A stretch of 59,906 nt of DNA from Candidatus Pacearchaeota archaeon (GCA_017608305.1 JAFCGC010000003.1:1-59906); one strand, 5' to 3'; positions 1 to 52,056 are shown, counted from the first letter of the stretch. Notes: a model not told the origin generated them from the sequence alone. Numbers and translations: made by a program.

Positions 1-101
1 ATAAAATATTTCTTTTTCACATCTTAGCAATCATAATAGCAATAATAACTCTACTAATTCAAAACTCACTATATATTCTGATAATCCATTTTATTTTATT
101 C

Positions 102-329
102 TTGTTTGTTACAGGTGTAATTTATCTTTCTTATAAACAAGCTAAAAAGAAAAACAAAAAATCCCATTTACATGGAATATATATCCTACTTTTTATATTT
201 TGGATATTTAATATCTTAGATTTATTGGTTCCAAATGTTCTTGTGGGTTTTCAATTATTAATCTATCTAATTTCAATTAGCATTTTCCTAGCAATTTTAT
301 ATAAAGTTCTTAAAAAAATAGGTCCTTAA
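102..329 (+). CDS. small membrane protein (hypothetical)
   Basis: 75-aa ORF. Hydrophobic segments flank a KKKNKK loop. No family recognised. Confidence 0.35.
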   Translation: MFVTGVIYLSYKQAKKKNKKSHLHGIYILLFIFWIFNILDLLVPNVLVGFQLLIYLISISIFLAILYKVLKKIGP

Positions 330-330
330 A

Positions 331-604
331 ATGACAAAACGAAATAAACTAGAAATAATAAAAGATATATTAAATATAATCAAAGAAAATCATAATTCAG
401 TAAAGATAACTCCTTTAATTAGAAAATCAAATCTTTCTTCTCAAAGATTTAATAAATACTATTTTGAATTAATTGAAAAAGGCCTTATTATTAAAAAAAA
501 ATGATGATAAAAAAGGAAAAACAATTTCATTAACAGAACAAGGCTTTAGATATTTAGAAAAATACCAAAATATCATAAGCTTTATTGAAGAATTTGATTT
601 GTAA
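331..604 (+). pseudogene. small archaeal winged-helix (HTH_45/PF14947-like) DNA-binding protein, frame broken in an A9 run
   Basis: ATG 331 reads MTKRNKLEIIKDILNIIKENHNSVKITPLIRKSNLSSQRFNKYYFELIEKGLIIKKK, then TGA at 502-504 after A-run 493-501. The +1 frame continues DDKKGKTISLTEQGFRYLEKYQNIISFIEEFDL to TAA 602-604. Removing one A joins them into a typical small wHTH. Both halves are under 60 aa, so they are absent from the ORF track. Confidence 0.6.
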
Positions 605-647
605 ATAACTCAATAAACTTTATAAACTAAAAAAAACATAATTTAAC

Positions 648-1676
648 ATGGAAAAAAAATCATTAGTGGGGGTGTTTTTAATATTATTCTTAGTAGGTTT
701 TGTGATTGCAGAAGATAATGAATCAGTCACTTGCGAAACAGACGATGATTGTGTTTTTGGAATCAAAATAGTGTGTTGCCCAATGCCATTTATTACTAAT
801 AAACAAACAGCAGAAGCAGATGAGAATATCCTTATTTATGATAAAACTAAAAGTTATTCTGAATACAGTGCAGAAAATTGTTCGGGAATTAATTGTTCTG
901 CCATAGCTCTTGATACAAGTAATCTAAATTGTATAAATAATGAATGTTCTAATGATCCTTTTTATTGTAATGAAGATACAGATTGCAATGAAGGATATGA
1001 ATGTGATGTTGGAATTTGTGTACTAGAAGAAGAAACAGAAGAAGATAAAGTATGCTGTAAAAAAATATATTCTAAAGGAAAACAAGAAACAAGATACAAT
1101 TTAATTGAAGAAAGTTCTTGTGTGTCTTCAAATTCATTTGAAGCTTCAATTGTTGATTATGAATTATGTGGGGAGAAAAAGCAAGCTATACAAGAAAAAA
1201 ATAGATTAAGATTTGAAGAAAGAACAGGTCAAGAATGTGCAGATGATTGTATTTGTACAGGAGTTGTTATGAAATGCCAGTTAGAAGGAGGAGGTCGTGA
1301 GATGACTGTTTATTCTAGATCAGGAAACATTATTATTCAAGTAAAAGGAGTAAACATGTCAACAAAAGTAGAATTATATCATCACAATAACAAAACATAC
1401 GGAGATTTTAATGGAGTCCAAAAAAGCATTTTAATGCCAGATCAAATCAAAGAAAAAATTCAAAACAGAATAAAACAAAAAACTTGTGAATGTGATGAAA
1501 TGGAATTAACAGAAGATGCTCTTTATAAAGTTCAAACAAAAAAGAAAGCTAGATTATTCTGGATATTTCCTGTAAGAGAAAAATCAAGAGTTGAAATTAA
1601 TGCAGAAAACGGAGAGATAATTAAGTTTAGAAATCCTTGGTGGGGATTTTTAGCTAATGATATTGAAGAAGAATAA
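648..1676 (+). CDS. secreted cysteine-rich protein (hypothetical)
   Basis: N-terminal signal-like segment LVGVFLILFLVGFVIA, about 22 Cys, acidic linker. The C-terminal NAENGEIIKF hairpin is reminiscent of PepSY (weak). Confidence 0.55.
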   Translation: MEKKSLVGVFLILFLVGFVIAEDNESVTCETDDDCVFGIKIVCCPMPFITNKQTAEADENILIYDKTKSYSEYSAENCSGINCSAIALDTSNLNCINNECSNDPFYCNEDTDCNEGYECDVGICVLEEETEEDKVCCKKIYSKGKQETRYNLIEESSCVSSNSFEASIVDYELCGEKKQAIQEKNRLRFEERTGQECADDCICTGVVMKCQLEGGGREMTVYSRSGNIIIQVKGVNMSTKVELYHHNNKTYGDFNGVQKSILMPDQIKEKIQNRIKQKTCECDEMELTEDALYKVQTKKKARLFWIFPVREKSRVEINAENGEIIKFRNPWWGFLANDIEEE

Positions 1677-1796
1677 TTTTTCTGGGTGATGATTGATTCT
1701 AGATGGGGACGTACGGAAGTTAAATAATCTATTCAACACCCAAACTGAGAGTTCTTTTTATATAACTTTTTAAAAGACAATATCTAGTTCTTAGTA

Positions 1797-2393
1797 ATGA
1801 ATAATAAAGAAAAGATAATCAAGCTATGTAAAGAAGGGTATTCTGAAGAAGATTATAAATACCATATCTTGCAAGTTGTTGAATATGCCTTGATATTGGC
1901 TAAAAAATTAAATGCAGATTTAGAAGTTGTTGAAATTTCTGCTTACTTACATGATATTGGAAGGGCTAAGAGAAGAAGGGAAGCTGAAGGAGATAGAAAA
2001 GCTTTTTTTGAAAATAATGATCACCATGTGGTGGGAGCTGAAGAAACAAAAGTGATCTTAAAAGATTTAGGATACAATGAGGAATTTATTAAAAAAGTGG
2101 AGCATTGTGTATTAACACATAGAGGTAGAAAAGGGCCTGCTCCAGAAACAAAGGAAGCTGAAATTATTGCATGTGCGGATGCAATGTCTCATTTTGATAC
2201 TTTTCTTGATTTATTTAGTTTCTTTTTAAAGACAACTAATTCTCTTGAAGAAGCGGTTGATAAGATTGAACAAAAGATAGATAGGAATTGGGATAAAAAA
2301 TTAACTCTTCCAGAAGCAAAGGAAATTGTTAAGGATAAATATGATGCAATAAAACTTATCCTATTAAGTATGAAAAAACGAATGAAGAAATAA
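1797..2393 (+). CDS. HD-domain metal-dependent phosphohydrolase
   Basis: HD motif in AYLHDIGR, with downstream His/Asp (VLTHRG, CADAMSH) typical of the HD/HDIG superfamily. Confidence 0.8.
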   Translation: MNNKEKIIKLCKEGYSEEDYKYHILQVVEYALILAKKLNADLEVVEISAYLHDIGRAKRRREAEGDRKAFFENNDHHVVGAEETKVILKDLGYNEEFIKKVEHCVLTHRGRKGPAPETKEAEIIACADAMSHFDTFLDLFSFFLKTTNSLEEAVDKIEQKIDRNWDKKLTLPEAKEIVKDKYDAIKLILLSMKKRMKK

Positions 2394-2412
2394 TTAAACT
2401 CCCGCCAGTGTT

Positions 2413-2425
2413 TCGGCGTGGGCGT
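2413..2425 (+). repeat. GC-rich intergenic 13-mer TCGGCGTGGGCGT, copy A
   Basis: Exact copy 20 nt after the HD gene stop. It lies in the imperfect hairpin 2394-2431 (TTAAAC TCCCGCC ... GGCGTGGGC GTTTAA). Confidence 0.8.
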
Positions 2426-2464
2426 TTAACCTAAATCTTTAAATGACATTTTCTTTTTTGGAAT

Positions 2465-2710
2465 ATGGTAAAAGAGTGGTATGTTTATATTCTTGAATGT
2501 CAAGATGGTTCATTTTATACTGGTGTGACAAATGATATTGATTCTCGGATGAATGCACATGCAAATGGAACTGGAAGTAAATATGTTTGTAAAAAAGGTT
2601 TTAAAGAATTACTTCGAGTTAAGAAATGTAAAGATAAATCTGATGCGTGTAAATGTGAATATGCAATAAAACAAATGCCTAGAAAAGATAAATTAGGTTG
2701 GTTTGATTAA
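2465..2710 (+). CDS. GIY-YIG nuclease-domain protein (stand-alone, UPF0213-like)
   Basis: WYVYILECQDGSFYTGVTNDIDSRMNAH matches the GIY-(x)-YIG core. 81 aa. Confidence 0.8.
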   Translation: MVKEWYVYILECQDGSFYTGVTNDIDSRMNAHANGTGSKYVCKKGFKELLRVKKCKDKSDACKCEYAIKQMPRKDKLGWFD

Positions 2711-2714
2711 TATC

Positions 2715-2727
2715 TCGGCGTGGGCAT
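2715..2727 (+). repeat. GC-rich intergenic 13-mer, copy B (TCGGCGTGGGCAT)
   Basis: One mismatch. Lies 5 nt after the GIY-YIG stop. Confidence 0.75.
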
Positions 2728-2804
2728 CTAACTTTTTGTTAAAATTGTGGGCTTTCAAACTTTCTCTATAACCTTCAAACAGGGAGTTGTTACCTTAAAA
2801 ATAA

Positions 2805-3623
2805 TTAGTTGGGACCAATGCTTCTAAAAAAATCAACTTGGGTATTATCAGCATCCATTGGGCAATTACTGCATAAGGGGTAAAGTTTTTTGCCACCTTT
2901 TTTTTGTAAATCTTTTACCATCTTCATATGTTTTTTTGAGAACCAAATATCCTTAATAGATTTATTAGAAATATTTCCTAAATTAAATTCATTTTTCATA
3001 TCTTCACAGCAAAAAGCAACGTTTCCATCATAATGGATAATAAGACGTTTAATAGGTTCTCCACATACTTTTTTAGATATAGCCTCCATTTTCTTTTTTG
3101 GATACAACAATAACTTGGTTATGCCATGTCTTGGAAATCTTTTTTCAATACAACTAAAACCTACTTTTGCTCCCTTAAGTTCTTTTCTCCAAAATTTAAT
3201 TTCTTTATCTCTTTCTCTTGTTGTTTTATAATCATACAATCCAATTAAGATACTATCAAAATATTTTACTGCCTGTTTTCTAAGGGTTTTATTTTTCTTT
3301 AAAATATCTCCGTTAGTATTGATATAAGGAACCATTCCTCTTTTTCTTGCTTCTTTTGCAAATTTAATTAATCTTTTATCTAAAAAAGCTTCACTTAGAT
3401 GATGAAAAGTAATTCTTCCCTTAAAGCCTAATTTTTCTAATTGATTAAAAATATCTATTACCTTGCTTGTGGGTAATTTTTTTATGATCGGCTTACCATT
3501 TTTATCCTTTCTGTTTCCAGACCTATCTCTTTTTCTTGGACAAAAATCACAATCACGATTGCAATTGGAATTTAACTCCAACATCACTCTTTGGAATAAT
3601 GGAAACTCTTTTTTTAAACTCAT
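2805..3623 (-). CDS. radical SAM protein with C-terminal Cys cluster (SPASM/twitch-like)
   Basis: CNRDCDFCP is CX3CX2C near the N-terminus. C-terminal cysteines: FCCEDM ... CSNCP. Confidence 0.75.
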   Translation of the reverse strand: MSLKKEFPLFQRVMLELNSNCNRDCDFCPRKRDRSGNRKDKNGKPIIKKLPTSKVIDIFNQLEKLGFKGRITFHHLSEAFLDKRLIKFAKEARKRGMVPYINTNGDILKKNKTLRKQAVKYFDSILIGLYDYKTTRERDKEIKFWRKELKGAKVGFSCIEKRFPRHGITKLLLYPKKKMEAISKKVCGEPIKRLIIHYDGNVAFCCEDMKNEFNLGNISNKSIKDIWFSKKHMKMVKDLQKKGGKKLYPLCSNCPMDADNTQVDFFRSIGPN

Positions 3624-3786
3624 TTTATATTTATTTTAATAATTTAATATCTTTAAATCTTCCTGATCCATACACCCCCATCTCGACAAATTTTATAAAT
3701 CAAAGCCACCACACACAATAATATCGGATTATAATCATCCGTTGAGGAAGAGGTGATCCATTGAATCAACCAAAATGGTAGAGCTT

Positions 3787-3799
3787 TCGGCGTGGGCGT
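3787..3799 (+). repeat. GC-rich intergenic 13-mer, copy C
   Basis: Exact copy in the spacer between the radical SAM start and the toxin gene end. Confidence 0.8.
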
Positions 3800-3843
3800 T
3801 CGTATATCTTAGCACAATCGAGGGATGTATTTCTAGTGAAGAA

Positions 3844-4092
3844 TTATTGTTTCTTTTTATGATATAAATCCATTACATAGATTTTATTTTCATTTTTATT
3901 ATAAACATAAGATAGTCTAAATGGTTTAAGATATAATTCTCTTGTTCCCCTTCTATTGTGCATCATAGGTTTACCTGCTTCAGAATTGCTTTCTATTTTT
4001 TTAAGTTGGTTAATAATTCTTTTTTTAATAATGTCTTCTTTTAGTTTTGAAAAAGTATTTTGAAATTTTTTTCCAAATATGAATTCTACCAT
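3844..4092 (-). CDS. RelE/ParE-family toxin
   Basis: 82 aa. C-terminal ...GTRELYLKPFRLSYVY..NKIYVMDLYHKK is typical of RelE/ParE. It overlaps the upstream antitoxin gene by 7 nt. Confidence 0.7.
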   Translation of the reverse strand: MVEFIFGKKFQNTFSKLKEDIIKKRIINQLKKIESNSEAGKPMMHNRRGTRELYLKPFRLSYVYNKNENKIYVMDLYHKKKQ

Positions 4093-4355
4093 TTCATCAT
4101 TTCTTCTTCAAGGTTTTCAGAATTAACTTTAATAAATTCTCCAGCTTCAATTCTTTTGTATGCTTCTTCAGTTCTTTTAGCAAATTCTAAATCTTCTTCA
4201 ATATTTTTACTAAAATCTTCCATTTTCTTTAAGATAATTTGTCCTCCATTCTTGAAAACAACTAACTTATCTCCTTCTTGTAAATGTTTTCTCATTTCTT
4301 GAGGAATTACAACCTGTCCCTTTGAACTTATCTTAGTTATGCTTATGTCCTCCAT
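4086..4355 (-). CDS. AbrB/SpoVT/MazE-type antitoxin
   Basis: ITKISSKGQVVIPQEMRKHLQEGDKLVV matches the SpoVT-AbrB swapped-hairpin motif. Paired with the RelE-like ORF. Confidence 0.75.
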   Translation of the reverse strand: MEDISITKISSKGQVVIPQEMRKHLQEGDKLVVFKNGGQIILKKMEDFSKNIEEDLEFAKRTEEAYKRIEAGEFIKVNSENLEEEMMKW

Positions 4356-4551
4356 GGTAAGAACAGTCTTACCTTATTTATAAATGTTTTGGACAAGAAA
4401 AGTAGTTGATAGTAAAGGAATAGTGATTCTTAGATTTAGTCAAGATAGTATGTTAATTCAAGCAGGTGTATCTCTCTTTATCCAGGCGTTACACTATTTT
4501 TATGTAGTACATAACCATAACCTTTAAATAAGAGTAGTACATAACTTATTT

Positions 4552-5457
4552 ATGGTTACTGAAAAACAAATTAAAGTTAAAGGGAAAGAATATTGGATAT
4601 TGATTCATTCAGTTAGAAAAGGTAAGAAAGTTATGCAAAAGAAAAAATATATTGGTAAATCTCTTCCACCTAAAACGAGATTAGACCAGTTGAAAAAAGA
4701 ATTCTTAAAAGAATTATCTGGAAATAAATACAAATATCTTTCTAAAGAAGATTTAGAAAAAATAGAAGATAAAAAAACAAAATATAAACAAGAATTAAGA
4801 AAACTAAGTAAGATAGAGAAAGAAAAGAAGCTAAATGAATTTATGATAAGATATACTTATGATAGTAGCAAACTTTCTGGGATCAATGTTACATTAAGAC
4901 AAACTTTTTTAATTTTAAAAGAAGGAATAATTCCCCAAGGGTTTAAGAATCTAAGAATAGCTAAAGAACTAGAAAATCATGAAAAAGGTTTTATTGCCAT
5001 TACAAAGTATAAAGGAAAATTTGATATAGCTTTTATTAAAAAATTGCATACAATTCTTTTTTTTGGAATTGATGATAGTATTGCTGGAAAATTAAGAAGC
5101 GATCTAAAAAGAGATGTAAATATTGCTGGAACCACATATGTTCCTCCAAAATGGCAAGAAATTAATAAGGAATTAGATAACTTCTTTAAGTGGTATAAAG
5201 CAAATAACAGAAAATTACACCCCTTGGAATTAACTTCATTAATACATTTGAAATTGATTTCAATACAACCTTTTGTTGATGGAAATAGTAGATTATCTAG
5301 ATTATTAATGAATTGGATTTTATGGAAGAAATCATATCCTTTAATTGATATTCCTATAGAAGATTTAGAAAATTATTATGATGTTCTAGACAAGTATCAA
5401 ATTGAAAAGGATGGAATTCCTTTTGTAAATTACATTAAGAAAAAGTATTTGGGTTAA
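4552..5457 (+). CDS. Fic/DOC-family protein with a non-canonical active-site motif
   Basis: The Fic core region reads QPFVDGNSRLSR where the family motif is HxFx(D/E)GNGRxxR. The surrounding helices look typical. Confidence 0.75.
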   Translation: MVTEKQIKVKGKEYWILIHSVRKGKKVMQKKKYIGKSLPPKTRLDQLKKEFLKELSGNKYKYLSKEDLEKIEDKKTKYKQELRKLSKIEKEKKLNEFMIRYTYDSSKLSGINVTLRQTFLILKEGIIPQGFKNLRIAKELENHEKGFIAITKYKGKFDIAFIKKLHTILFFGIDDSIAGKLRSDLKRDVNIAGTTYVPPKWQEINKELDNFFKWYKANNRKLHPLELTSLIHLKLISIQPFVDGNSRLSRLLMNWILWKKSYPLIDIPIEDLENYYDVLDKYQIEKDGIPFVNYIKKKYLG

Positions 5458-5470
5458 TTGGTGTGGGCGT
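5458..5470 (+). repeat. GC-rich intergenic 13-mer, copy D (TTGGTGTGGGCGT)
   Basis: Two mismatches. Starts directly after the Fic stop codon. Confidence 0.6.
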
Positions 5471-5529
5471 CTGTTGTTAGAAAGTTCAATATAGAAATAC
5501 TTAAATATTGTTAAAATATATCTTTTTCT

Positions 5530-5724
5530 ATGGTGAAAACAATAGATAGAGAATTAGGAAAAACAACAATAGATAAAGTCCGAAAGGAATTAAGTCCTGT
5601 GTCTTTTGCTGAACAATATCTAGAAGAGCCAGTTTATGTGGGTGCTGATGGAGTTAACTATTCGGCAGGACCAACTGTAACAGTGTGTACTTGGAGAGGA
5701 ATTCCAACTATTGATGATTTCTAA
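5530..5724 (+). CDS. candidate graspetide (omega-ester RiPP) precursor peptide
   Basis: 64-aa ORF ending 14 nt before the ATP-grasp gene. Leader segment SPVSFAEQYLEE resembles the PFFARFL-type leader motif. The C-terminal GPTVTVCTWRGIPTIDDF is rich in Thr and Asp. Confidence 0.5.
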   Translation: MVKTIDRELGKTTIDKVRKELSPVSFAEQYLEEPVYVGADGVNYSAGPTVTVCTWRGIPTIDDF

Positions 5725-5738
5725 GTTATAAATCTCAA

Positions 5739-6698
5739 ATGAAAAATATATTGATTTTAACACATAGCGAAGACCCTCATGCAGATTCGGTTTGTAAATA
5801 CTTGTCTGAAAGGGGAATAAATACTTTTAGAGTTGAAACTGAAAGATTATCTGAGAATTATAAATTAACTTTTAACTCAAATTCTCTTACATATTCCATT
5901 AGTAATGGTGGTGAAGAAATACAAATAGATGATTCTTGGAATATTTGGAATAGAAGGGTTATGAATCCAGATGTTAGAAAGGGTTTGCCAAGAAATATAA
6001 CTGATATTATTTTTGACGAATCAGAAAAAGCTTGGGATGGTTTGCTTATGTCACATAAAGGAAAAGTTGTGAATAGACCCCAAAACCATTTATATGCTAA
6101 TAATAAAATAGATCAAATGAAGTTTGTTTCAAGGTTTGACAGTTCTGTTTTAATTCCAGATACTTTGGTTACAAATGATCCTAAGAAAGTTAGAGAATTT
6201 TATGATAAACACAAAGGGAATATTTGTTTTAAACTTCATAAAGGAGCTGTTGTTGAATCTTCTGAAGGACGTAAGACAGTATATACTAACAAAGTAACAA
6301 GAGAACAAATGGCAAATGCAAATCTCATATCTTCTCATCCTTGTTTTTTCCAAGAGTATGTAGAAAAAGATTTTGAAGTGAGGGTGGTTGTAACAGATAG
6401 TGGCCATGAGGCCATAGCAATACATTCACAAAACTCAGAAATTTCAAAAATTGATTACCGAAAATATGATTTTGAAAATGTTCCTTATGAACCTATTGAA
6501 TCTTCTTTAGATGTAAAAAATGTTTGCTCTGAAATGTTAAAATATTATGGGTTGCATTTTGGTGTTTTTGATTTTATTAAATCAAAAGAGGGGAAAGACA
6601 TATTTTTAGAGTTAAATCCAAATGGACAGTGGCTTTGGTTAGAGGAGCAATCAGGGCATGATTTAACTAGTATTGTTGCTAATAATTTATTAGATTAA
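5739..6698 (+). CDS. ATP-grasp peptide macrocyclase (MvdC/MvdD, graspetide-type)
   Basis: N-terminus ILILTHSEDPHADSV, DYRKYD, and C-terminal IFLELNPNGQWLWLEE closely follow my recollection of microviridin-type ATP-grasp ligases (IFLEINPVGEFFWLE). Confidence 0.75.
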   Translation: MKNILILTHSEDPHADSVCKYLSERGINTFRVETERLSENYKLTFNSNSLTYSISNGGEEIQIDDSWNIWNRRVMNPDVRKGLPRNITDIIFDESEKAWDGLLMSHKGKVVNRPQNHLYANNKIDQMKFVSRFDSSVLIPDTLVTNDPKKVREFYDKHKGNICFKLHKGAVVESSEGRKTVYTNKVTREQMANANLISSHPCFFQEYVEKDFEVRVVVTDSGHEAIAIHSQNSEISKIDYRKYDFENVPYEPIESSLDVKNVCSEMLKYYGLHFGVFDFIKSKEGKDIFLELNPNGQWLWLEEQSGHDLTSIVANNLLD

Positions 6699-6699
6699 A

Positions 6700-7329
6700 A
6701 TGTTTAAACAAATAAAAGAGAAAATAAGAGGAAAATCCTTAATTTTATTTGGGGAATTACATGGTACTAAAGAAATTCCCAAATTCATAGAGAAATTTTT
6801 CTCCGAGTTAGCAAAGGAAGAGGAATTTAATATTTGCTTTGAAATTCCAAGAGAATTTCAAGAGAATATAGAAGAATTTTTTAAGATTAGTAAGAAAGAA
6901 GAGAGTGATGGAAGGAATTCCTTAGAATATCTAAATTTAATAAAAAAACTAAATAGTTTAGATAGAAATATTGATATATTTTGTATAGACCCCGAAGGGG
7001 AAACTCAAATAGAAAGAGAAGAAGGTCTAGCAAAAAATATTTTAAAACATGTTAATGAAAAGAAAACCTTTGTAATTCTCGGTGATGTTCATGCATCAAA
7101 AAATAAATTATCTATTGGGGGAACAAAAATAAATCCTATGGGGGCAATATTATCTGAAAAATTAAAAGAAAAAATGTTTAGCATAAGAATTGTTCCTTCA
7201 AGAGGAAAATTCTTTAATTTTGGAGTTAAAGAAATCAAAGAAGGAAGTGAAAAAGATGTTTTTAATGATAATTTTGATTATATTTATAATGTGGGGAAAG
7301 TGAGTGAATGTTCCTTTTTAAACAAATAA
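6700..7329 (+). CDS. ChaN/Tiki/erythromycin-esterase-superfamily-like protein
   Basis: LILFGELHGTKE (GExH), CFEIP (Glu) and FVILGDVHA (His) have the spacing seen in that superfamily. Starts 2 nt after the ATP-grasp stop. Confidence 0.4.
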   Translation: MFKQIKEKIRGKSLILFGELHGTKEIPKFIEKFFSELAKEEEFNICFEIPREFQENIEEFFKISKKEESDGRNSLEYLNLIKKLNSLDRNIDIFCIDPEGETQIEREEGLAKNILKHVNEKKTFVILGDVHASKNKLSIGGTKINPMGAILSEKLKEKMFSIRIVPSRGKFFNFGVKEIKEGSEKDVFNDNFDYIYNVGKVSECSFLNK

Positions 7330-7359
7330 CCATGGGCTCGTATCACTTCTGATACCCCC

Positions 7360-7372
7360 TCGGCGTGGGCGT
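7360..7372 (+). repeat. GC-rich intergenic 13-mer, copy E
   Basis: Exact copy 31 nt after the 6700..7329 stop. Preceded by hairpin GTATCA-CTTC-TGATAC (7341-7356). Confidence 0.8.
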
Positions 7373-7445: not shown

Positions 7446-8228
7446 ATGGTGATGTATTCACACTCAAAATTATCTACTTTTGAACAATGCAGTCTTAAAT
7501 ACAAATACAAGTATGTAGACAAAATCAAAGTTCTTGGAAAATCTGTTGAAGCTTTATTGGGTTTTGCTGTTCATGATGTCTTAGAATATTTATACACACA
7601 AGTAAAAAACAACAAAATTCCTGAGTTAGACGAGATAATCATGATTTATTCAAATACTTGGAAAGATAACTATAATGAAAATATAGTAATAGTAAAAGAT
7701 GACTTAACAGAAAAAGATTATTTTAACAAAGGGGTTCAATTTTTAATTGACTACTACATGAAACACAAACCTTTTACTGACAATACTCTTGAAACAGAAA
7801 AAAGAATCAATATTGTTCTTGATAAACTAAACAACATTAACTTAATAGGCTATATAGATCGATTAGTCCACAATAAAGAAAAAGATGAATATGAAATTCA
7901 TGATTATAAAACAAGTAATTCTATGCCATCTCAACAAGAATTAGATCAAGACAGACAATTAGCTCTTTACTCAATTGCGATAAAAGAAGCTTTTGGTCAT
8001 GACAAACCTGTTATTCTTGTGTGGCATTATTTAGCTCACGGAATAAAAGTCACATCTAGCAGAACAAATTCCCAACTCCTAGATTTAAAAAACCAAACTA
8101 TAGAGCTAATAAAAAAAATAGAATCAACAACAATTTTTCCTCATAATAAATCTATTTTATGTAATTGGTGTGAATATAAAACAATGTGTTCTGCTTGGAA
8201 CACAGAATATAAATACAAAAACCATTAA
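7446..8228 (+). CDS. PD-(D/E)XK nuclease, Cas4/RecB-like with Fe-S cysteines
   Basis: N-terminal Cys (EQCSLKYKY), IGYIDRL...HDYKT (D..D/E-x-K core) and C-terminal CNWCEYKTMC (CX2CX5C), as in Cas4/AddB nuclease domains. Confidence 0.75.
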   Translation: MVMYSHSKLSTFEQCSLKYKYKYVDKIKVLGKSVEALLGFAVHDVLEYLYTQVKNNKIPELDEIIMIYSNTWKDNYNENIVIVKDDLTEKDYFNKGVQFLIDYYMKHKPFTDNTLETEKRINIVLDKLNNINLIGYIDRLVHNKEKDEYEIHDYKTSNSMPSQQELDQDRQLALYSIAIKEAFGHDKPVILVWHYLAHGIKVTSSRTNSQLLDLKNQTIELIKKIESTTIFPHNKSILCNWCEYKTMCSAWNTEYKYKNH

Positions 8229-8331
8229 ATATTTGAAAAATAAGGTGGAAGGAAAAAACCGAAGTTAAATCCTCCCGGTATCTGACCGAAGTCAGATGAA
8301 AAATATAAGTATTAAGGGTTTATAAGCTTTT

Positions 8332-8994
8332 TTATTGTCCATTATCTTGTACTTTGATTAGGTCGCTCACATAATCTCCTTGCTGAAGCTTGACAATTCT
8401 CACTCCTTGAGCAGCCCTCCCCATTATCCTTATGTTCTTTAAAGAAGTCCTAATAACAATACCTTTTGCAGTTGTAATAATTATTCCATCATTTTCATTT
8501 ACAGCAACAGTATTCACAACATCTCCTGTTTTTTCAGTAACTTTAAGATTAATAACTCCTTTTCCTGCCCTCGCTGTTTTCCTATAATCCTTAACCGCAG
8601 TTCTTTTTCCATAACCTTTTTTTGTAATTGTTATAATAGCATGTGTAGCTAAAATCTCTAGACTCACAACCCTATCATCTTTATCTAATTTAATTCCAGT
8701 AACACCATAACTAGCTCTTCCCATTGAACGAACATTTTCTTCTTTAAACCTAATTGCTTTACCTTTTTTAGTGGCAAGAGAAACTTCTTGACCTTTTTTA
8801 ACCAATTCAACACCAATAAGACTATCAGAACCATCACTAGGAAGATTAATTGCCTTAACTCCAGAAGCTCTTGGTTTAGAAAAATTACTCAAAGAAATTT
8901 TCTTTACAATTCCCTTTCTAGTTGCCATAAATAAATCATCTGTAAATTGATTTACAGAAATAACATTTGTAACTTTTTCATTTTTAAGATTCAA
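8332..8994 (-). CDS. gyrA: DNA gyrase subunit A, C-terminal beta-pinwheel fragment
   Basis: Repeated blades (TRKGIVKK, TKKGKAIRF, TKKGYGKRT, TAKGIVIRT). Separated from the N-terminal ORF by a frame change at C6 9014-9019. Confidence 0.85.
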   Translation of the reverse strand: MNLKNEKVTNVISVNQFTDDLFMATRKGIVKKISLSNFSKPRASGVKAINLPSDGSDSLIGVELVKKGQEVSLATKKGKAIRFKEENVRSMGRASYGVTGIKLDKDDRVVSLEILATHAIITITKKGYGKRTAVKDYRKTARAGKGVINLKVTEKTGDVVNTVAVNENDGIIITTAKGIVIRTSLKNIRIMGRAAQGVRIVKLQQGDYVSDLIKVQDNGQ

Positions 8995-9002
8995 TAAATT
9001 AA

Positions 9003-10769
9003 TTATTGCCTTACCCCCCTTGTAGTAAAAAACATAAGATAATCATGTGTAGAACAAGTTATTAGTTGTTTTACAAAATCTCCTGTTGCCAAACCACTTC
9101 CAATAACTCCTTTTCCTCCTCTTTTTTGTTCCTTATAGGTTTTAATATCCATTCTTTTACAATAACCTTTATCTGTAATATTTATAACAACTTCTTTTTT
9201 CTGTACAAGATCCTTTTCAGAAATCTCACTTATCCGTTGCAAAACATTTGTCCTTCTTTTGTCTCCATATTTATTTTTAAGTTCATTAACTTCTTTTACA
9301 ATTATTTTTAAAACTTCTCTTACATCTCCAAGAATTTTTTCAAGCATAGTAATTTTTTCTTTCAGATCTCTTTGTTCTTTTTTTAATTTATCTTTTTCTA
9401 AAGAAGTAAGTTGTTGTAGTTTTGTTTCTAAGACAGCTTGAGCTTGTTTTCGAGTTAATTTAAATTTCTTTATCAACCCTTCTAAAGCTTCTGTTATGCC
9501 TTTAGATTTTTTAATTAAAGTTATAACACTATCAATATTTTCAAGAGCAATTAAAAGACCCTCGACAATTTCTAATCTATCTTTAGCTTTTTTCAGTTCA
9601 AATTTCGACCTATTAACAACTATTTTTTTCCTATATTTTACATACTGTTCAACAACATCTTTTAGAGTCAAAATTTTTGGTTGCCCATTAACTAAAGCCA
9701 AAAAATTCACATTAAAAAAATCCTGTAGTCTGGTGTATTTATACAAAGAATTAATAATAAACTTTGGGTTGGCCCCTCGCTTTAATTCTAAAACAATTCT
9801 AATCTTACCCTTAGAACTCTCATCACGAAGATCAGAAACATCCCTTATTCTCCTTTTCTGAATCAAATCAGCTATTTGAGTTATAAGAGTTGTTTTATTT
9901 AACATATAAGGAATTTCTGTAATTACAATTGCTTCTTTTTTCTTAATAATCTCTGAAGTTGTTCTTCCTCTAAGAGTCAATCTTCCTCTTCCTGTTTTAT
10001 ATAGCTCAAGCATATCTCCTTGAACCATTCCTCCTGTAGGAAAGTCAGGACCTTCAACAATTCCACATAGTTTTTCAATATTAATATCTGGTTTTTTAAT
10101 ATACGCAACAATTGCATCACATACTTCTGTTAAATTATGAGGAGGAATATTTGTAGCCATACCAACAGCAATTCCTGTTGCACCATTAAGCATCAAAGCA
10201 GGAAGTTTTCCAGGAAGCAATTCAGGTTCTTTCAAAGAATTATCAAAATTAGGGGCAAACTTAACAGTTTCTTTCTCAATATCTTGTAATAATTCTGTAG
10301 AAATTTGCATTAATTTAGCCTCAGTATATCTATAAGCAGCAGGAGGATCTCCATCAATCGATCCAAAATTTCCTTGTCCAAAAACAAGAGGATATCTTAA
10401 AGAAAAATTTTGTGCCATTCTTACTAAAGCGTCATAAACAGCGCTATCTCCATGGGGGTGAAACTTACCAATAACATCTCCAACAATTCTAGCGCTTTTT
10501 TTAGTCTGTGTTCCTGGTTTTAATCCCATTTGGTTCATAGCATATAAAATTCTCCTCTGCACAGGTTTAAGACCATCCTCAATTGAAGGAATAGCCCTAG
10601 AAACAATTACACTCATAGCATAATCTAAATATGCTTTTTTCATCTCGCTAGAAACTTCAGTATTAACTACTCCTTTTTCTTCTTGCTTTCGTTCGATGTC
10701 TTCAGCGGACAAGACATGAGGCTTTCCCTCAGAATCTTTTTCTTCATTTGTTTTTTTCTCTGGTGTCAT
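9003..10769 (-). CDS. gyrA: DNA gyrase subunit A, N-terminal part (breakage-reunion domain plus GyrA box)
   Basis: [18 protein letters not shown], active-site region [10 protein letters not shown], and GyrA box QKRGGKG. Ends ...FFTTRGVRQ*. Confidence 0.9.
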
Positions 10770-18111: not shown

Positions 18112-21100
18112 TTAAATGCTTTCCTTTATTTTTATTATTTTCTCCTTTTTATCAACAATCATTCTACTTTTCAAGGCACTTCTTTTTAATTTTATTCTTC
18201 TATAAGAATAATAAGATATTCCTGTAAAAAAAGCAAAAACTGTTGCTATAGCAAGATACCTATATAATTTATTCTCAACTACTTCTCTTGTCAAACCCCT
18301 TGTTGGTTGCTCTATAGCTTCTCTACAAGCATTAATTGCCTCTTCTGCCTTTTGATTTGCCATCTCAGTATTTCCTTCTCTTGCATATTGTTTAGCCTCC
18401 TCAATAAGCTCTTTTAATTCTAAACACTCTGGATTTTCAACAATAAATTCCTCTATAAATAATAATTTTTCTTGTATTTTATCTCCTTCTTGAATTGTCA
18501 AATAAATTTTTCCCCAATCATGGTATTTTGGACTAGTCACACTAGCATTAATTGTTATTTCAAAGGTTCCAAGATCATCTGTATCTATATCTGCTGTTAA
18601 AGTCACAGCTTCTGAATTTCCAACTCCTAAACTAGAAAAATAAGTTTTATCAAATGAAAGGATAATATCATTCCTAAGTTCACCATCTTTAGCCACACTT
18701 CCTGATAAATTAATTCCAAAAAGACTAATCTTTCCATCATTTTGCAAAGTAATTGGCAATACTATCTGATCTTTTTTAAATGCTGAAACAGGATCAGGCA
18801 TAATTATTTTTAAAGACACTGGTTGAAGAGTTGTTCCTCCACCACCACTTGGAGTAACAGTAACAGTCTCAGGTTCTGTAAACTTAACTAAAAAATCATT
18901 ACTAGTAACACTTGTTAAGATTGAATTGTCTGACGAATTTATATCAGAAGCAGTTATATTTAACATTTCAGTAACAGCAATTATGGCAGATAAAGTCAAA
19001 AGCCAATCAGAAGAAACACTCGAAGTAATATCTGTAGGTGAAGAATTACTTGATATTGTAAAATTAACTGTTTGATTATATTTAGCATCTGTATAATCTA
19101 TATCTGAAAAATATTGAGTCAGATCTATTTCTATATCACTGTTATAAGTTGCTTGTTTGTATCCAATATACCCCCTAAATGCAACAGGAGAATTGTTATG
19201 AGTTATATTTGAATTCCAATTTATAGTATAATTAAAATCAGTTGCATTTGCAAGATCACTAGTAGCAGGATAAATTAATAAACTTAAATTCTCAAACAGA
19301 CCATAAGTCTCGTCAGTAAAATTAGGAGTAAAAGCCCAGGTTAAATTAGTATTATTTCCATAAGAACTCGCATTATACTTGTAAATCTCATTTAAATAAA
19401 ATGCATAAGTTAAATTATCATTTACAGAATGATTTGCTCTAAATATTAAACTAGAAGTTACATTTTCTTGCAGACTAAAATTATAAGTAGGTAAAGGAAA
19501 AGTTATGTTAGGAGTTCCATAAACCAAAACCCAAAAATCCTGAGAATCTATACTTCCATCAGTATCATTAACAGTTATATTTATATTATATTTTCCTGCC
19601 TGCGTATCATTAAAAGTAATATCTAATTCTCCTGAAGTTGTATTAAAAATAGACTCATTATTTCCTATAAAATCAGTTCCACTAAGAAAAGCATAATCAT
19701 AGGTTAAATTTCCAGAACTATCATCTCCATCTTCTGTATCTGAAGCATTAATATTATAATAAAGAGTCCTATTTACTCCAGAAGATTGATTTGTTAAATT
19801 CATTAAAACAGGATTATGGCTTATTTCAATAATAGTAAGATTAAAAGATAAAAACACAGAAGCATTAGAGATATCTGTAACATTTATACTAACATTATAA
19901 CCTCCTATATCTGATTTTCCAGGAGTAAATGAGGCAGTATATCGAGTTCTATTAGCCCCAGGAGTAGGAAAATTACCATCTTTAGTAAAACTAAACAAAC
20001 TTGAATTAGGACCCTCAATAGTCAAATTAACTGTCAAAGTCTCATTATAATAACTCTTTTGACTTGCATTCACTTTCAAATCTTCATCTTGAACCCAAAG
20101 AGTAATAATGGTGTAATTATCTTCTGCAGTAGTTATATTTGAATTAGACTCTACAGTAGCATTAACATTCACACTAAGCGGCGTTTCCATCATGGGTTCT
20201 GTATTTATATTTGAAACATTAAATATAAACAAAGTTGTGTTTTCAAGTCCTAGAGAATCATTAGCAGTAACACTAAATTCCCAATAACCTATATCTAGTT
20301 TCCAAGGAGTAAAATCCACCATCCCACCTGAACTTAAATTAAATCCAGGAAATGCTGTTGATGAAGTAAAAGTGAGAACATCCCCAATATCAGTAACATA
20401 CAAATCCCCTGTTAAATTAATTGGGCCAAATTGATCAGTAGTTGCAAGAGTAGAATTAACAGTTAAATCAAAACTATAATTTGTTTGATTCCAAGTAGGA
20501 AATGTATTTGATGAAATAGTTAAATTAAATATAATTGAATAAAAAGCATTCTCACTGTCATTCACAGATAAGTTAACAGTATAATCTCCCACTTGAGTCT
20601 CATTTGGAGTAAATCTTATCTCAGCTGTTGTTTGGTTTGTGGGCACAGTAACATTCAAAACAGGCATACTCAAAATAGTTACTGTAAAATTATCAATAGT
20701 CAAAGCTTGACTTAAATCAGATTGATTAAACAAAGTTGCATTAAAAGTAATTGTTTCATTATATCCTCCAGAAACATCATTTTTATCTGGGATTAATAAA
20801 TCATTATCATAAACAGACAAACTAATTGTTCTTTCTAAATCCATAGAAGTTTGAACATTAGCCACATCAGTGATTTCAGGAGCATCATTAAGCGAACTAT
20901 TTCTTTCAACATAAACAGGAATTTGAACTGTAATATTTTGTCCATAAGTATCATCAAAAACAGTGAAATTAATTGTCCAATTTCCAATCTCTGTTTTTTG
21001 AGGAGTCACATTTATCAAAATCTCTTTTGTAAAATTATCAGAAGTTGTTGTTGAATTAACAAGAAACCAACTCCTATTTAAAACCCCTCCTCCATAATTC

Positions 21101-22029
21101 CTTAAAAGAGCTATACTAGAAATATTCAGAGCATCTTCTTCGCCTTGGGTAGTTAGATTAATATAACAAAAATCTGCAACATTTTCTGTAAAAACTTTAT
21201 TTTCACAATCAGTTATGTTTGCATCTAAACTTGCAAAAACATTAAATCTAACAGCTACAGAATAGATCGTTGTCTGATTTTGTTCATAAGCTGCAGCATC
21301 ACAATAATTATGAGGGCAAGAATAATTTTCACCAAAGTCCATTACAGAAATATTTGCCCAATAAGTACCAACATCATCTTTTGTAGGGGTAAAATTCATA
21401 GCAGCTGAATCATTTGTAAGATCTGTTAGAGTCATGCCTAAAACAAATAAAGAACAATTCTCTCCATCATTTCTTTGAGACCAAGAAGCATGACTACAAT
21501 TATCTATAAAAAAACTTATATTAAAAGTTAAATTAAGATGAGATTCTTGATCTGTTGCATTTAAATAATCATAAAAACTTTGATTCTGAGTCAAATTAAA
21601 GACACTAGACATATTAACAAATTCAGGAGCATCATTTGTTGCATTAACCTCAAAGAAAAAAGTCTCAATATCTCCTGAACCAGTATCATTTTGCACACTC
21701 ATAGTAATATTAAATCTTCCTGTTTCATTATCTTTAGAAGAAGTAAAATTCATAAGTCCTAACACATCATCTGTCAAATTAATCCAATAAATATCACTTG
21801 CAGTATAAGTATCATCTTCAGACCAATTTATAGACAAAACAGTAAAAAGATGTGGAGGCTCAGAAGTTGATAAGTTTGCTGTAAAATTATGTTGATAATC
21901 AGTATCTTCAACCAAAAAATAAGGTCCTCTTGATCCAGTATCAAATTGAGGCTTAGCTAAAACAAATCCAAGTAAAAAGAGAATTGCAAAGATCCCAAGA
22001 TAAATTAAAATATTTTTTCTAGACTTCAT
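18112..22029 (-). CDS. large (1305 aa) surface protein with cadherin/Ig-like repeats and a C-terminal TM anchor
   Basis: Signal peptide. Repeat boundaries of NDAPEF / NDAPEI / NTEPM / SHNPV type. Dozens of N-x-S/T sequons. C-terminal TM followed by basic residues. Confidence 0.8.
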   Translation of the reverse strand: MKSRKNILIYLGIFAILFLLGFVLAKPQFDTGSRGPYFLVEDTDYQHNFTANLSTSEPPHLFTVLSINWSEDDTYTASDIYWINLTDDVLGLMNFTSSKDNETGRFNITMSVQNDTGSGDIETFFFEVNATNDAPEFVNMSSVFNLTQNQSFYDYLNATDQESHLNLTFNISFFIDNCSHASWSQRNDGENCSLFVLGMTLTDLTNDSAAMNFTPTKDDVGTYWANISVMDFGENYSCPHNYCDAAAYEQNQTTIYSVAVRFNVFASLDANITDCENKVFTENVADFCYINLTTQGEEDALNISSIALLRNYGGGVLNRSWFLVNSTTTSDNFTKEILINVTPQKTEIGNWTINFTVFDDTYGQNITVQIPVYVERNSSLNDAPEITDVANVQTSMDLERTISLSVYDNDLLIPDKNDVSGGYNETITFNATLFNQSDLSQALTIDNFTVTILSMPVLNVTVPTNQTTAEIRFTPNETQVGDYTVNLSVNDSENAFYSIIFNLTISSNTFPTWNQTNYSFDLTVNSTLATTDQFGPINLTGDLYVTDIGDVLTFTSSTAFPGFNLSSGGMVDFTPWKLDIGYWEFSVTANDSLGLENTTLFIFNVSNINTEPMMETPLSVNVNATVESNSNITTAEDNYTIITLWVQDEDLKVNASQKSYYNETLTVNLTIEGPNSSLFSFTKDGNFPTPGANRTRYTASFTPGKSDIGGYNVSINVTDISNASVFLSFNLTIIEISHNPVLMNLTNQSSGVNRTLYYNINASDTEDGDDSSGNLTYDYAFLSGTDFIGNNESIFNTTSGELDITFNDTQAGKYNINITVNDTDGSIDSQDFWVLVYGTPNITFPLPTYNFSLQENVTSSLIFRANHSVNDNLTYAFYLNEIYKYNASSYGNNTNLTWAFTPNFTDETYGLFENLSLLIYPATSDLANATDFNYTINWNSNITHNNSPVAFRGYIGYKQATYNSDIEIDLTQYFSDIDYTDAKYNQTVNFTISSNSSPTDITSSVSSDWLLTLSAIIAVTEMLNITASDINSSDNSILTSVTSNDFLVKFTEPETVTVTPSGGGGTTLQPVSLKIIMPDPVSAFKKDQIVLPITLQNDGKISLFGINLSGSVAKDGELRNDIILSFDKTYFSSLGVGNSEAVTLTADIDTDDLGTFEITINASVTSPKYHDWGKIYLTIQEGDKIQEKLLFIEEFIVENPECLELKELIEEAKQYAREGNTEMANQKAEEAINACREAIEQPTRGLTREVVENKLYRYLAIATVFAFFTGISYYSYRRIKLKRSALKSRMIVDKKEKIIKIKESI

Positions 22030-51268: not shown

Positions 51269-51389
51269 GAGCCTGTAGCTCAGTCTGGTCAGAGCACTGC
51301 TCTTATATGAGTGTGGTTTGTTAAAATCACTTTCTCTTGGAGATCTCTAAGAGAGGCAGGGGTCCACGGTTCAACTCCGTGCAGGCTCA
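51269..51389 (+). tRNA. tRNA-Ile(UAU) with a 46-nt intron at 37/38
   Basis: Hand-folded. Acceptor GAGCCTG/CAGGCTC, D arm GCTC/GAGC, anticodon stem CTGCT/GGCAG, loop C-T-TAT-A, T arm CACGG-TTCAACT-CCGTG, discriminator A. Mature length 75 nt. Confidence 0.8.
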
Positions 51390-51931: not shown

Positions 51932-52056
51932 GCCCCGATAGTTCAGAGGCCAAGAATTCTGCCCTTTCAAGGTAAGATTCTCTGAATCTTCCATTTCTCC
52001 TCTCCTCTGAGGATTGAAGAAAGGCAGTGACCCGGGTTCGAATCCCGGTCGGGGCG
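51932..52056 (+). tRNA. tRNA-Glu(UUC) with an about 52-nt intron at 37/38
   Basis: Hand-folded. Acceptor GCCCCGA/TCGGGGC, D arm GTTC/GAAT, anticodon stem CTGCC/GGCAG, loop C-T-TTC-A, T arm CCGGG-TTCGAAT-CCCGG. Confidence 0.85.

Follow-up and report, generated by a model that had tools for sequence, protein, structure and literature searches.

Direct repeats between aIF2-gamma and gyrA

We analysed a 59,906-nucleotide stretch of DNA from a Candidatus Pacearchaeota archaeon (the window, 59.9 kb), in which a GC-rich 13-mer, TCGGCGTGGGCGT, recurs between gene units. The relevant features are as follows.

1797 to 2393, + strand: HD hydrolase gene, the last gene of the 2.9-kb unit running from U2 (see below) to copy A
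2413 to 2425, + strand: copy A, exact; 19 nt past the HD stop and 39 nt ahead of the GIY-YIG start
2465 to 2710, + strand: GIY-YIG gene, in the 302-bp unit from copy A to copy B
2715 to 2727, + strand: copy B, TCGGCGTGGGCAT, one mismatch; 4 nt past the GIY-YIG stop, with convergent genes on either side
2805 to 3623, - strand: rSAM-SPASM gene, in the unit between copies B and C
3665 to 3786, + strand: promoter-bearing conserved element, CCCCATCTCGACAAATTTTATAAAT plus about 80 nt, running up to copy C
3787 to 3799, + strand: copy C, exact; flanked by two - strand features, the rSAM start and the RelE stop
3800 to 3843, + strand: flank past copy C, resembling the sequence after motif copy m1 in the relatives' loci L248 and L246
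3844 to 4355, - strand: RelE/Gp49-like and MazE/AbrB-like gene pair, between the copy C flank and the Fic promoter
4495 to 5457, + strand: Fic module, a promoter with two GTAGTACATAAC boxes plus the gene
5458 to 5470, + strand: copy D, TTGGTGTGGGCGT, two mismatches; 0 nt past the Fic stop
5530 to 7329, + strand: graspetide unit (64-aa precursor candidate, MvdD-type ATP-grasp, ChaN-like), between copies D and E
7360 to 7372, + strand: copy E, exact, the right end of the array; 30 nt past the ChaN-like stop
7446 to 8228, + strand: Cas4-like PD-(D/E)XK gene, a conserved gyrA neighbour in relatives
8332 to 10769, - strand: gyrA, present as two ORFs that differ in frame; the conserved anchor on the right of the hotspot
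51932 to 52056, + strand: resident intron-containing tRNA-Glu(TTC) gene, 3' end CCGGTCGGGGCG, of the same family as the motif

At up to two mismatches the motif occurs five times in the window, against 0.02 expected from shuffles, and none of 100 shuffles reached five copies. The original prediction of five copies was recovered with the same coordinates, mismatch counts, strand and placement: all five are on the plus strand, all are intergenic, and four follow closely on plus-strand stops (HD, GIY-YIG, Fic and ChaN-like), at the gaps listed above. The 8-mer GTGGGCGT is confined to four of the five copies (expected 0.01), copy B having GTGGGCAT instead. No additional copy was found in the window at three mismatches on either strand; two more lie just to its left. 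These were read from L001, a contig that matches window positions 1-2899 except for one 1-nt indel and that carries the plus-strand copies U1 (TCGACGTGGGCGT) and U2 (GCGGCGTGGGCGT) at window-equivalent positions -1382 and -460, in line with an array running toward the window start. In total, the array has at least seven copies over about 8.8 kb, 7/7 on the plus strand and all intergenic. The motif was not found in the 7.9 kb farther upstream of U1 and U2 in L001; in all, it is absent from the other ~60 kb examined outside the 8.8-kb array. Comparison of the copies revealed no sequence common to their flanks beyond the 13-mer, and the unit ends have no shared terminal sequence.

All seven copies lie inside a 12.9-kb variable stretch from aIF2-gamma to gyrA. 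Among related Pacearchaeota (DPANN archaea), L209 and L225 have the two genes immediately side by side, and in other relatives they are 0.8-7 kb apart with different genes between them. Hotspot content varies from 0 to 12.9 kb among the related genomes, and the copies do lie at junctions of gene units within a variable accessory region. On the right, copy E is 73 nt from the Cas4-like gene, which, judging by its conservation beside gyrA, is the border of the variable region and not cargo. The motif at up to two mismatches was not found in the 40 relatives' loci collected via GyrA, and it is absent at the hotspot in relatives with 50-83% GyrA identity. What looked like GC-rich repeat families in L218 and L222 turned out to be coding paralogue motifs. 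A further motif, TAGATGGGGA, found where the two insertion blocks have their left edges, was neither more frequent than chance nor conserved in relatives. Relatives of the DUF3160 protein encoded by an adjacent gene (80 loci) showed neither synteny nor motif; the gene has been spread by horizontal transfer (Methanosarcinales, Caldisericota and others).

Annotation of the gene units gave a mixed result for the cargo list originally proposed. The HD, GIY-YIG, rSAM-SPASM, Gp49/RelE-like, MazE/AbrB-like, Fic, MvdD-type ATP-grasp and Cas4-like annotations hold, but two of the listed genes are no rare cargo, namely the Cas4-like gene, a conserved gyrA neighbour, and the GIY-YIG gene, which is conserved clade-wide (75-84% protein identity across Pacearchaeota) and in L242 lies 8 nt after a tRNA-Glu(CTC) gene. 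A graspetide trio is found at the same hotspot in the relative L253, in the opposite orientation, and graspetide homologues elsewhere are without such repeats. Exact-protein look-ups with the Cas4-like and rSAM proteins of the window returned no record of either.

Match between the motif and tRNA-Glu gene ends

The original prediction had overlooked where the motif comes from. Among all tRNAs found in the loci examined, those nearest to the motif are Glu and Asp genes. The tRNA-Glu(TTC) gene of the relative L256 has the 3' end GTTCGAATCTCGGCGGGGGCG followed by T (also written TCGGCGGGGGCG followed by T), with which the motif agrees at 12 of 13 positions (one mismatch). In tRNA terms, the motif consists of the T-stem end TCGG, then CGTGGGC from the 3' strand of the acceptor stem, the discriminator G and a single additional base. 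In the resident tRNA-Glu(TTC), 4 of 12 positions are unlike those of the core, and its end is not repeated nearby. No exact cognate tRNA turned up for the window genome, no intact tRNA was detected in or beside the island with ARAGORN and Rfam, and tRNA-Glu similarity upstream of the 13-mer was not significant at any window copy.

Homology in relatives breaks at the core

The motif-bearing loci of relatives were then compared. In L248, a tRNA-Glu(TTC) gene (3352-3498) is followed by Fic, MNT and HepT genes and by motif copy m1 (5530-5542), beyond which lie a leader with Fic, the conserved element and a second repeat, m2 (6792-6804). The tRNA gene and both repeats are on the plus strand, the repeats bracket toxin-type units (Fic, MNT/HepT), and 12 nt of m1 (CGGACGGGGCGT) are identical to the tRNA-Glu end of the same genome, with the downstream flank of the tRNA shared too. 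In L259, a tRNA-Glu T-arm and acceptor strand stand directly ahead of CGGTCGGGGCG, followed by the flank and Fic. L260 and L261 encode a Fic protein identical to that of L259 and share its core and a near-identical flank, but their leftward sequence is unrelated to it, starting exactly at the core. Similarly, the sequences of L245 and L243 part exactly at the 3' edge of TCGGCATGGGCGT. In L243/L244 the variants TTGGCGTGGGTAT and TTGGCGTGGGTGT lie on either side of Fic, the motif copies of L243 (3/3) are on one strand, and in other loci same-strand genes lie 16-96 nt ahead of motif copies. Breakpoints at the core are seen in relatives, and the comparison of related genomes proposed in the original prediction revealed both varying hotspot content and homology breaks at core sites.

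Around copy C, the element at 3665-3786 shows homology to L248 6670-6815 and partial homology to three L246 copies, and it may be read either as a small-RNA gene or as the arm of an att junction on the element's side. The flank past copy C, via the m1 flanks of L248 and L246, resembles the native downstream flank of the L248 tRNA-Glu gene. Copy C would retain the fuller layout of a right-hand junction, running from the element-side arm through the core and the tRNA-Glu-like downstream flank to Fic. DNA homology of the Fic module to L246, L248 and L249 stops at its stop codon, which is the start of copy D. The RelE/AbrB pair, previously placed in one unit with Fic, appears from the sequence to have been inserted later into an older motif-leader-Fic unit, carrying no motif copy of its own. 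Two scans of viral contigs for a viral origin of the conserved arm yielded nothing, or one coding chance match.

Serial integration as the probable origin of the array

Because the motif is real and matches a tRNA-Glu gene end, the array is most likely the footprint of repeatedly inserted mobile DNA, and the identity of the motif with a tRNA-Glu gene 3' end indicates classical tRNA-targeted integration. It is therefore probable that serial site-specific integration at one hotspot left att-core repeats derived from the tRNA-Glu end; as part of the same reading, we favour the 13-mer being a terminal segment of the tRNA-Glu gene reused as the att-site core. Site-specific recombination at the copies, as first suggested, is the best-supported explanation, with homology in relatives breaking exactly at the sites. 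A circular DNA with the same core would integrate site-specifically, adding one more direct copy per event, and repeated events at the convergent aIF2-gamma/gyrA junction would leave same-orientation cores between independently acquired units. The cognate tRNA expected under serial integration would have the 3' end (C)TCGGCGTGGGCG. A tyrosine-type integrase, encoded elsewhere now or formerly, was presumably responsible, and the sites may still be active or may be mere scars.

This reading accords with published islands, in that archaeal integrases favour the asymmetric tRNA 3' end and att sites as short as the acceptor end are possible (PMC8371274), island ends are marked by displaced tRNA fragments (PMC4383910), and partial tRNAs scattered in islands are a record of older serial integrations (bioRxiv 10.1101/2020.12.28.424599). 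Features of att islands seen here are the tRNA 3' segment (12/13, L256), the direct orientation, and presence or absence with breaks at the repeat in relatives. An intact target tRNA at one end and an internal integrase gene are missing from the window island; the former is present at the island end in L248.

A Pfam search of 50 proteins (window plus 10 kb upstream) detected no integrase or transposase domains, as had been noted for the window. The existing Pfam annotation of the remaining upstream genes in L001 also contained no integrase, so the tyrosine recombinase that might have been encoded on the upstream contig did not appear. Likewise, no integrase or transposase domain is annotated in the relatives' motif-bearing loci L246, L248, L256 and L259; the lone exception among such loci is a Y1 transposase gene in L243/L244.

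The points that we counted against serial integration were the 302-bp unit holding a clade-conserved gene; the repeat-free graspetide homologues elsewhere and the motif-free hotspots of GyrA relatives (50-83%); and the lack of an intact tRNA, of an integrase and of upstream tRNA similarity, together with the 4/12 differences of the resident tRNA-Glu.

Alternative explanations

Several other kinds of site were examined. For integron attC sites, the criterion was a pair of RYYYAAC and GTTRRRY cores 50-150 nt apart around an imperfect palindrome. A regular-expression scan for such R''/R' pairs (69 kb, both strands) found none at any copy, the sole pair lying at window 1731-1884. Folding 113-nt windows as DNA put six copies at z-scores of -0.5 to +1.0 and U1 alone at -2.6, without a hairpin shared among the seven, and no Rfam family was detected at the motif sites at the gathering threshold or at E<=10. 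Transposon or MITE ends were rejected (no inverted 13-mer partner at three mismatches, no terminal sequence shared by unit ends), and so were Ter-like polar replication-terminus sites at the convergent junction, since the motif is absent from relatives that share this junction. Among the matches listed for the 14-mer TTCGGCGTGGGCGT against viral contigs, there were single chance ones in GC-rich phages (median GC 62%).

A rather unlikely alternative is an integrase-less but active cassette platform, whose units are excised and captured at the core by a recombinase encoded elsewhere in the genome. The units are 0.3-2.9 kb long, none has a recombinase, and 7/7 cores share one orientation. In addition, the cores are nearly identical in this genome and their variants differ by genome, as Ghaly et al. 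described for chromosomal attC (PMC9668308); the majority of copies stand behind a same-strand gene, as attC sites do; and Fic units occur in differing contexts across genomes with cores at their edges. Such a platform would resemble an integron or CALIN (an attC cluster without integrase) in which a linear 13-bp tRNA-derived site replaces the folded attC. However, a candidate recombinase was not found, the layout is also explained by decay of ordinary integrated elements, the RelE/AbrB pair and the graspetide homologues move motif-free, and circular or empty-site forms of the window units are not in evidence. It is also rather unlikely that Pacearchaeota (DPANN) run an integron-like economy in which recombinase-less toxin, defence and peptide units are reshuffled at a linear 13-bp tRNA-Glu-end site by a recombinase encoded elsewhere; the promoter-bearing conserved arm beside some sites would then drive or guide recombination. 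If units do move without their own integrase, the system would be integron-like but would use another type of site.

The motif is quite improbable as an RNA-level signal, that is, a tag for 3'-end processing, stability or protein binding, perhaps mimicking a tRNA acceptor. Four window copies do lie 0-30 nt past plus-strand stops, copies in other loci follow same-strand genes at 16-96 nt, and copy C ends a promoter-bearing, sRNA-like element. Nevertheless, there is no partner strand, common fold or U-tract past the motif, U1 and U2 sit behind minus-strand genes, ~50 other window genes have no motif behind them, and neither the strain breakpoints at the core nor the L248 layout from a real tRNA gene is explained.

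Very improbable is an operator for an island DNA-binding regulator (e.g. HTH_45 or AbrB-type) that co-regulates foreign genes. The 13-mer is GC-rich and non-palindromic and contains the tandem GGCGT/GGGCGT, plus-strand genes have TATA-like boxes 10-40 nt downstream of copies A, D, E and U2, and the island encodes regulators; on the other hand, B, C and U1 face convergent gene ends, promoter spacing varies from 0 to 40 nt, and the tRNA-Glu-end identity and the homology breakpoints are left unexplained.

Finally, a true integron cassette array (CALIN) with attC sites is largely refuted: the array is same-oriented behind short cassettes, and integrons and CALINs have been reported in Archaea, Nanoarchaeota included (PMC9668308), but the attC analogy of the original prediction fails because the copies have no RYYYAAC...GTTRRRY pair and no common or imperfect-palindrome fold, while conservation is limited to a linear 13-mer and neither IntI nor an Rfam match at the sites was seen.

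Comparison with known islands

With serial integration as the preferred reading, the window resembles tRNA-gene islands (PMC4383910, PMC8371274) in its direct repeats of a tRNA 3' segment, its variable presence and its homology breaks at the repeat, and L248 has the full order of tRNA-Glu, island, repeat, island, repeat. Unlike those islands, it has no intact tRNA at its ends and no integrase or integrase fragment, lies between aIF2-gamma and gyrA, and has a core of just ~13 nt in seven copies with units down to 302 bp. The tycheposon islands of Prochlorococcus (bioRxiv 10.1101/2020.12.28.424599) are likewise hotspots of flexible genes in a streamlined genome, where older elements are driven inward as new ones integrate at the one att, and where scattered partial tRNAs record old events. 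They adjoin full-length tRNA genes, however, and many keep tyrosine recombinase and replication modules, none of which was found in the window island, whose host is a DPANN archaeon. Integron and CALIN arrays (PMC9668308) differ by their folded attC (R''/L''/L'/R'), GTTRRRY core, IntI and attI. The window site, in contrast to attC, is a linear, tRNA-derived sequence. In the dif/pdif modules of Acinetobacter plasmids, short Xer sites bound small accessory modules and the host recombinase acts in trans; pdif sites are 28-bp dyads of alternating orientation, whereas the window motif has no dyad and a constant orientation. The island is of a known kind, unusual in its one 302-bp unit and in showing neither an integrase nor an intact cognate tRNA. 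Rather than an integron, it most likely reflects a familiar process in a lineage that has received little study.

The DPANN archaea, whose genomes are tiny, are for the most part uncultured, and hardly anything has been described of their mobile elements. They go unmentioned in a 2021 review of archaeal tyrosine recombinases (PMC8371274). Here, a Pacearchaeota chromosome would hold a hotspot of flexible genes assembled by the classical route, through att repeats of a tRNA end. The 12-13-nt signature family CGGNNNGGGCGT may serve as a tool for mapping islands and strain variation in metagenomes, and it could track cargo such as Fic, MNT/HepT, RelE/AbrB, graspetide and rSAM genes.

Direct repeats form an array of at least seven copies

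Scanning the window for the GC-rich 13-mer TCGGCGTGGGCGT (core, TCGGCGTGGGCG; family pattern of the intergenic copies, CGGNNNGGGCGT) returned five copies, all on the plus strand:

2413, plus strand, copy A, exact
2715, plus strand, copy B, one mismatch
3787, plus strand, copy C, exact
5458, plus strand, copy D, two mismatches
7360, plus strand, copy E, exact

Shuffled sequences gave an expectation of 0.02 matches against these five, and allowing up to three mismatches added no further copy in the 59.9 kb. The 8-mer GTGGGCGT was confined to four of the copies (expected 0.01), copy B having the variant GTGGGCAT. These counts exclude a chance origin of the array. All five copies are intergenic, and a plus-strand stop codon precedes four of them by 0-30 nt. 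The original prediction was thus borne out as to the positions, mismatches, common orientation and placement of the copies, and Pfam confirmed its gene annotations.

It had also noted that the left side of the array runs toward the window start, and the array does continue past it. L001, a contig from JGI sample 3300033153 that equals window positions 1-2899 except for one 1-nt indel, carries two further copies on the array's strand, U1 (TCGACGTGGGCGT) and U2 (GCGGCGTGGGCGT), 1382 and 460 nt left of the window start, respectively; the 7.9 kb of L001 beyond U1 holds none. At least seven copies therefore lie inside 8.8 kb of window plus L001, with start-to-start spacings, from left to right, of 922, 2872, 302, 1072, 1671 and 1902 nt. 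Comparison of their flanks showed no common sequence beyond the 13-mer. The repeat array is real.

Some minor features were seen here. The indel, which lengthens a poly-A run by one base in the window (A9, against A8 in L001), is the sole difference over the 2.9-kb overlap and cuts an HTH_45 winged-helix gene to 57 aa (window 331-504; L001 9685-9957). The motif contains GCGTGGGCG (window 2415-2423 and the other copies), the textbook Zif268/EGR1 zinc-finger site; we regard this as a coincidence. Several copies have, 25-31 nt upstream of their core, an inverted box, ACGCCCA(CG), that is preceded by an A-run and complements the 3' part of the window motif (L001 7936-7942, L246 8722-8734, and the upstream arm of L259 and L260; L-numbers denote fetched contigs or loci).

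The array occupies a variable chromosomal hotspot

The window has a GC content of about 30%, and the nearest homologues of its proteins belong to Pacearchaeota/Nanoarchaeota MAGs, which places the source among the DPANN archaea. The array is bordered on the left by aIF5B, S6e and aIF2-gamma, and on the right by a Cas4-like nuclease gene followed by gyrA and gyrB on the opposite strand. A set of 40 metagenomic loci with GyrA relatives (50-83% identity) revealed a conserved order: gyrB-gyrA facing the Cas4-like gene, a 342-aa secreted protein, aIF2-gamma, S6e and aIF5B. In two loci (L209 and L225) gyrA adjoins aIF2-gamma directly, and in the others 0.8-7 kb of varying genes separate the two. Because of this, the 12.9-kb aIF2-gamma to gyrA interval of the window, which contains all seven motif copies, is an expanded variable hotspot. 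Another locus, L253, carries a homologous graspetide trio in the same hotspot, in reversed orientation. The Cas4-like and 342-aa genes are conserved residents rather than cargo, so the earlier listing of the Cas4-like nuclease among the cassette genes did not hold. The exact motif was absent from the GyrA-relative loci and from loci with relatives of the adjacent DUF3160 gene, and no tRNA lies between aIF2-gamma and gyrA in the relatives.

Behind the 342-aa gene lies a candidate small RNA of C/D-box-like type (window 1676-1756, plus strand; Rfam snoCD11, 27 bits, E about 0.1). The ~25 nt at its start (TTTTTCTG..TGATTC.TAGATGGGGA) recur after a 152-aa gene at the left border of the variable stretch (L001 5323-5347); this short motif by itself was not significant.

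The motif matches the 3' end of tRNA-Glu

The motif was identified from the genomic context of homologous accessory genes in relatives. The GIY-YIG protein is 75-84% identical across Pacearchaeota, and in L242 a distance of 8 nt separates its start from a preceding tRNA-Glu(CTC) gene whose end reads CTCGGCAGGGGCA. In L256 a tRNA-Glu(TTC) gene, directly followed by an assembly gap, ends in GTTCGAATCTCGGCGGGGGCG/T and agrees with the motif at 12 of 13 positions. On account of this match, the motif corresponds to the T-stem end (TCGG), the acceptor 3' strand (CGTGGGC) and the discriminator (G). Of all the tRNA genes present in the fetched loci, those for Glu and Asp came closest to it. The resident tRNA-Glu(TTC) of the window ends in CCGGTCGGGGCG, with four mismatches to the motif, and its neighbourhood contains no repeats of its own end. 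Coordinates of tRNA genes are as follows:

Window 51269-51389, tRNA-Ile(TAT), intron-containing (ARAGORN intron mode)
Window 51932-52056, tRNA-Glu(TTC), intron-containing (ARAGORN intron mode)
L248 3352-3498, tRNA-Glu(TTC), ending CCCGGACGGGGCG/TATAGCCTTTTTGGCAC

Both intron-containing tRNAs are detected by Rfam and missed by the default tRNA tool.

Homology breaks at the motif in relatives

L248 (GCA_018816625.1) shows a textbook layout of tRNA, island, repeat, second island and repeat, in a single orientation throughout. Its tRNA-Glu gene is followed by Fic, MNT, HepT, the repeat m1, a second Fic, and a conserved element terminating in the repeat m2 (ACGGTCGGGGCGT). In m1 (TTCGGACGGGGCG/TAATACCATTTTGGCAT), 12 nt (CGGACGGGGCGT) equal the end of the tRNA, whose flank the m1 flank also resembles. 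The MNT-HepT toxin-antitoxin pair also lies between 48-nt direct repeats, 94% identical (4601-4648 and 5484-5531), the second of which extends into m1.

Three loci, L259, L260 and L261, encode one identical Fic protein (89% identity to the window Fic) behind differing upstream sequences. In L259, a tRNA-Glu T-arm and acceptor strand immediately precede CGGTCGGGGCG, then come the flank and the Fic gene. This core recurs in L260 and L261, whose flank and region upstream of Fic are nearly the same as those of L259; their sequence left of the core is unrelated to that of L259, the break falling exactly at the core. Similarly, L245 and L243 diverge precisely at the 3' edge of TCGGCATGGGCGT, the Fic gene of L243/L244 lies between TTGGCGTGGGTAT and TTGGCGTGGGTGT, and DNA homology of the window Fic module to L246, L248 and L249 ends with the stop codon, immediately before copy D. 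L259 also contains an inverted duplication (460-720 versus 860-1000), with arm, core and flank on the minus strand beside the tRNA-fragment version, a pattern suggestive of two coexisting variants joined during assembly.

At copy C, the 120 nt on the left, a conserved promoter-like box CCCCATCTCGACAAATTTTATAAAT plus about 80 nt, are homologous to the pre-m2 element of L248 and partly to three L246 copies. The 40 nt on the right resemble the post-m1 flank in L248 and L246 and, through these m1 flanks, the sequence that natively follows the tRNA-Glu gene of L248. This order of arm, core, native flank and Fic looks like a right-hand attachment (att) junction. Between the copy C flank and the Fic promoter lies the RelE/AbrB pair, apparently inserted later and without bringing a motif copy. 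Two GTAGTACATAAC boxes around the TATA box of the Fic promoter (window 4495-4551; L246, L248, L249 and L259), conserved across genomes with 86-89% identical Fic proteins, are likely an autoregulatory operator.

Proposed island building at tRNA ends and its alternatives

Within tRNA genes, archaeal tyrosine integrases favour the asymmetric 3' end, and an att site may be no longer than the acceptor end (PMC8371274). Since integration restores the tRNA and a displaced fragment stays behind, two repeats mark the island ends (PMC4383910); under serial integration at one site, older elements are pushed inward and partial tRNAs are left through the island (bioRxiv 10.1101/2020.12.28.424599). We consider it reasonably probable that the motif represents an att core taken from the 3' end of tRNA-Glu and that the interval grew by such tRNA-type island building, of which the locus is a new DPANN example. 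The array would then be a stack of old, perhaps also recent, integration events at tRNA-end cores, and the predicted cognate tRNA-Glu, probably the CTC isoacceptor, would end in CTCGGCGTGGGCG. Unlike known tRNA-type islands, the locus showed no integrase and no neighbouring tRNA, and its units are very small, features that could make it a variant of the known kind; units down to 302 bp may be decayed elements, or else cassettes mobilised in trans.

Two other readings, both considered unlikely, fit part of the array. An RNA 3'-end tag fits the position after same-strand genes; however, there is no common structure at the motif, the placement does not hold for U1 and U2, and the homology breakpoints are left unexplained. 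Rfam scans gave no match at the motif sites, and no oligo-T follows the motif. If the motif were instead an operator, the closeness of four copies to promoters would suit it, but three copies face convergent gene ends. Between the motif and the downstream TATA box lie anywhere from 0 to 40 nt.

The features that were tested exclude a true integron. No copy has the attC core pair RYYYAAC...GTTRRRY, and folds of 113-nt windows gave no hairpin common to the copies, that of U1 alone being notable (z = -2.6; ACGCCCA pairs with TGGGCGT). No integrase or transposase domain was found in 50 proteins of the window and upstream contig, where a tyrosine recombinase had been suggested as a check, or in the precomputed annotation of the remaining upstream genes. 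The original prediction, in which recombination sites bound acquired units, was accordingly right in kind and wrong in its comparison with integron attC arrays.

Additional features of the gyrA region and beyond

The window gyrA (8332-10769, minus strand) is split into ORFs of 588 aa (9003-10769) and 220 aa (8332-8994) in different frames, both of which are open across 9003-9042; the split comes from a frameshift or a sequencing error, or marks a pseudogene. In relatives gyrA is a single ORF, and in several of them (L221-L225) it is 3.7-4.9 kb long, which suggests inteins. Two stable UUCG-tetraloop hairpins (8258-8300, minus strand; z = -3.2) come right after the gyrA stop, and a similar sequence follows gyrA in L203; they probably form a conserved structure of the 3' UTR or terminator. 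Near gyrB in L221 (4187-4290), three tandem 36-nt repeats contain AAATCCACGCAGTGATTT, a box that also occurs in L214 (8649, 8714 and 12765; two direct, one inverted) and is possibly of origin type or regulatory. Finally, the minus strand of the window has giant ORFs of 3710 aa (29008-40140) and 1305 aa (18112-22029); the latter adjoins a MoxR/DUF58/VWA gene set, and the former lies about 7 kb beyond.
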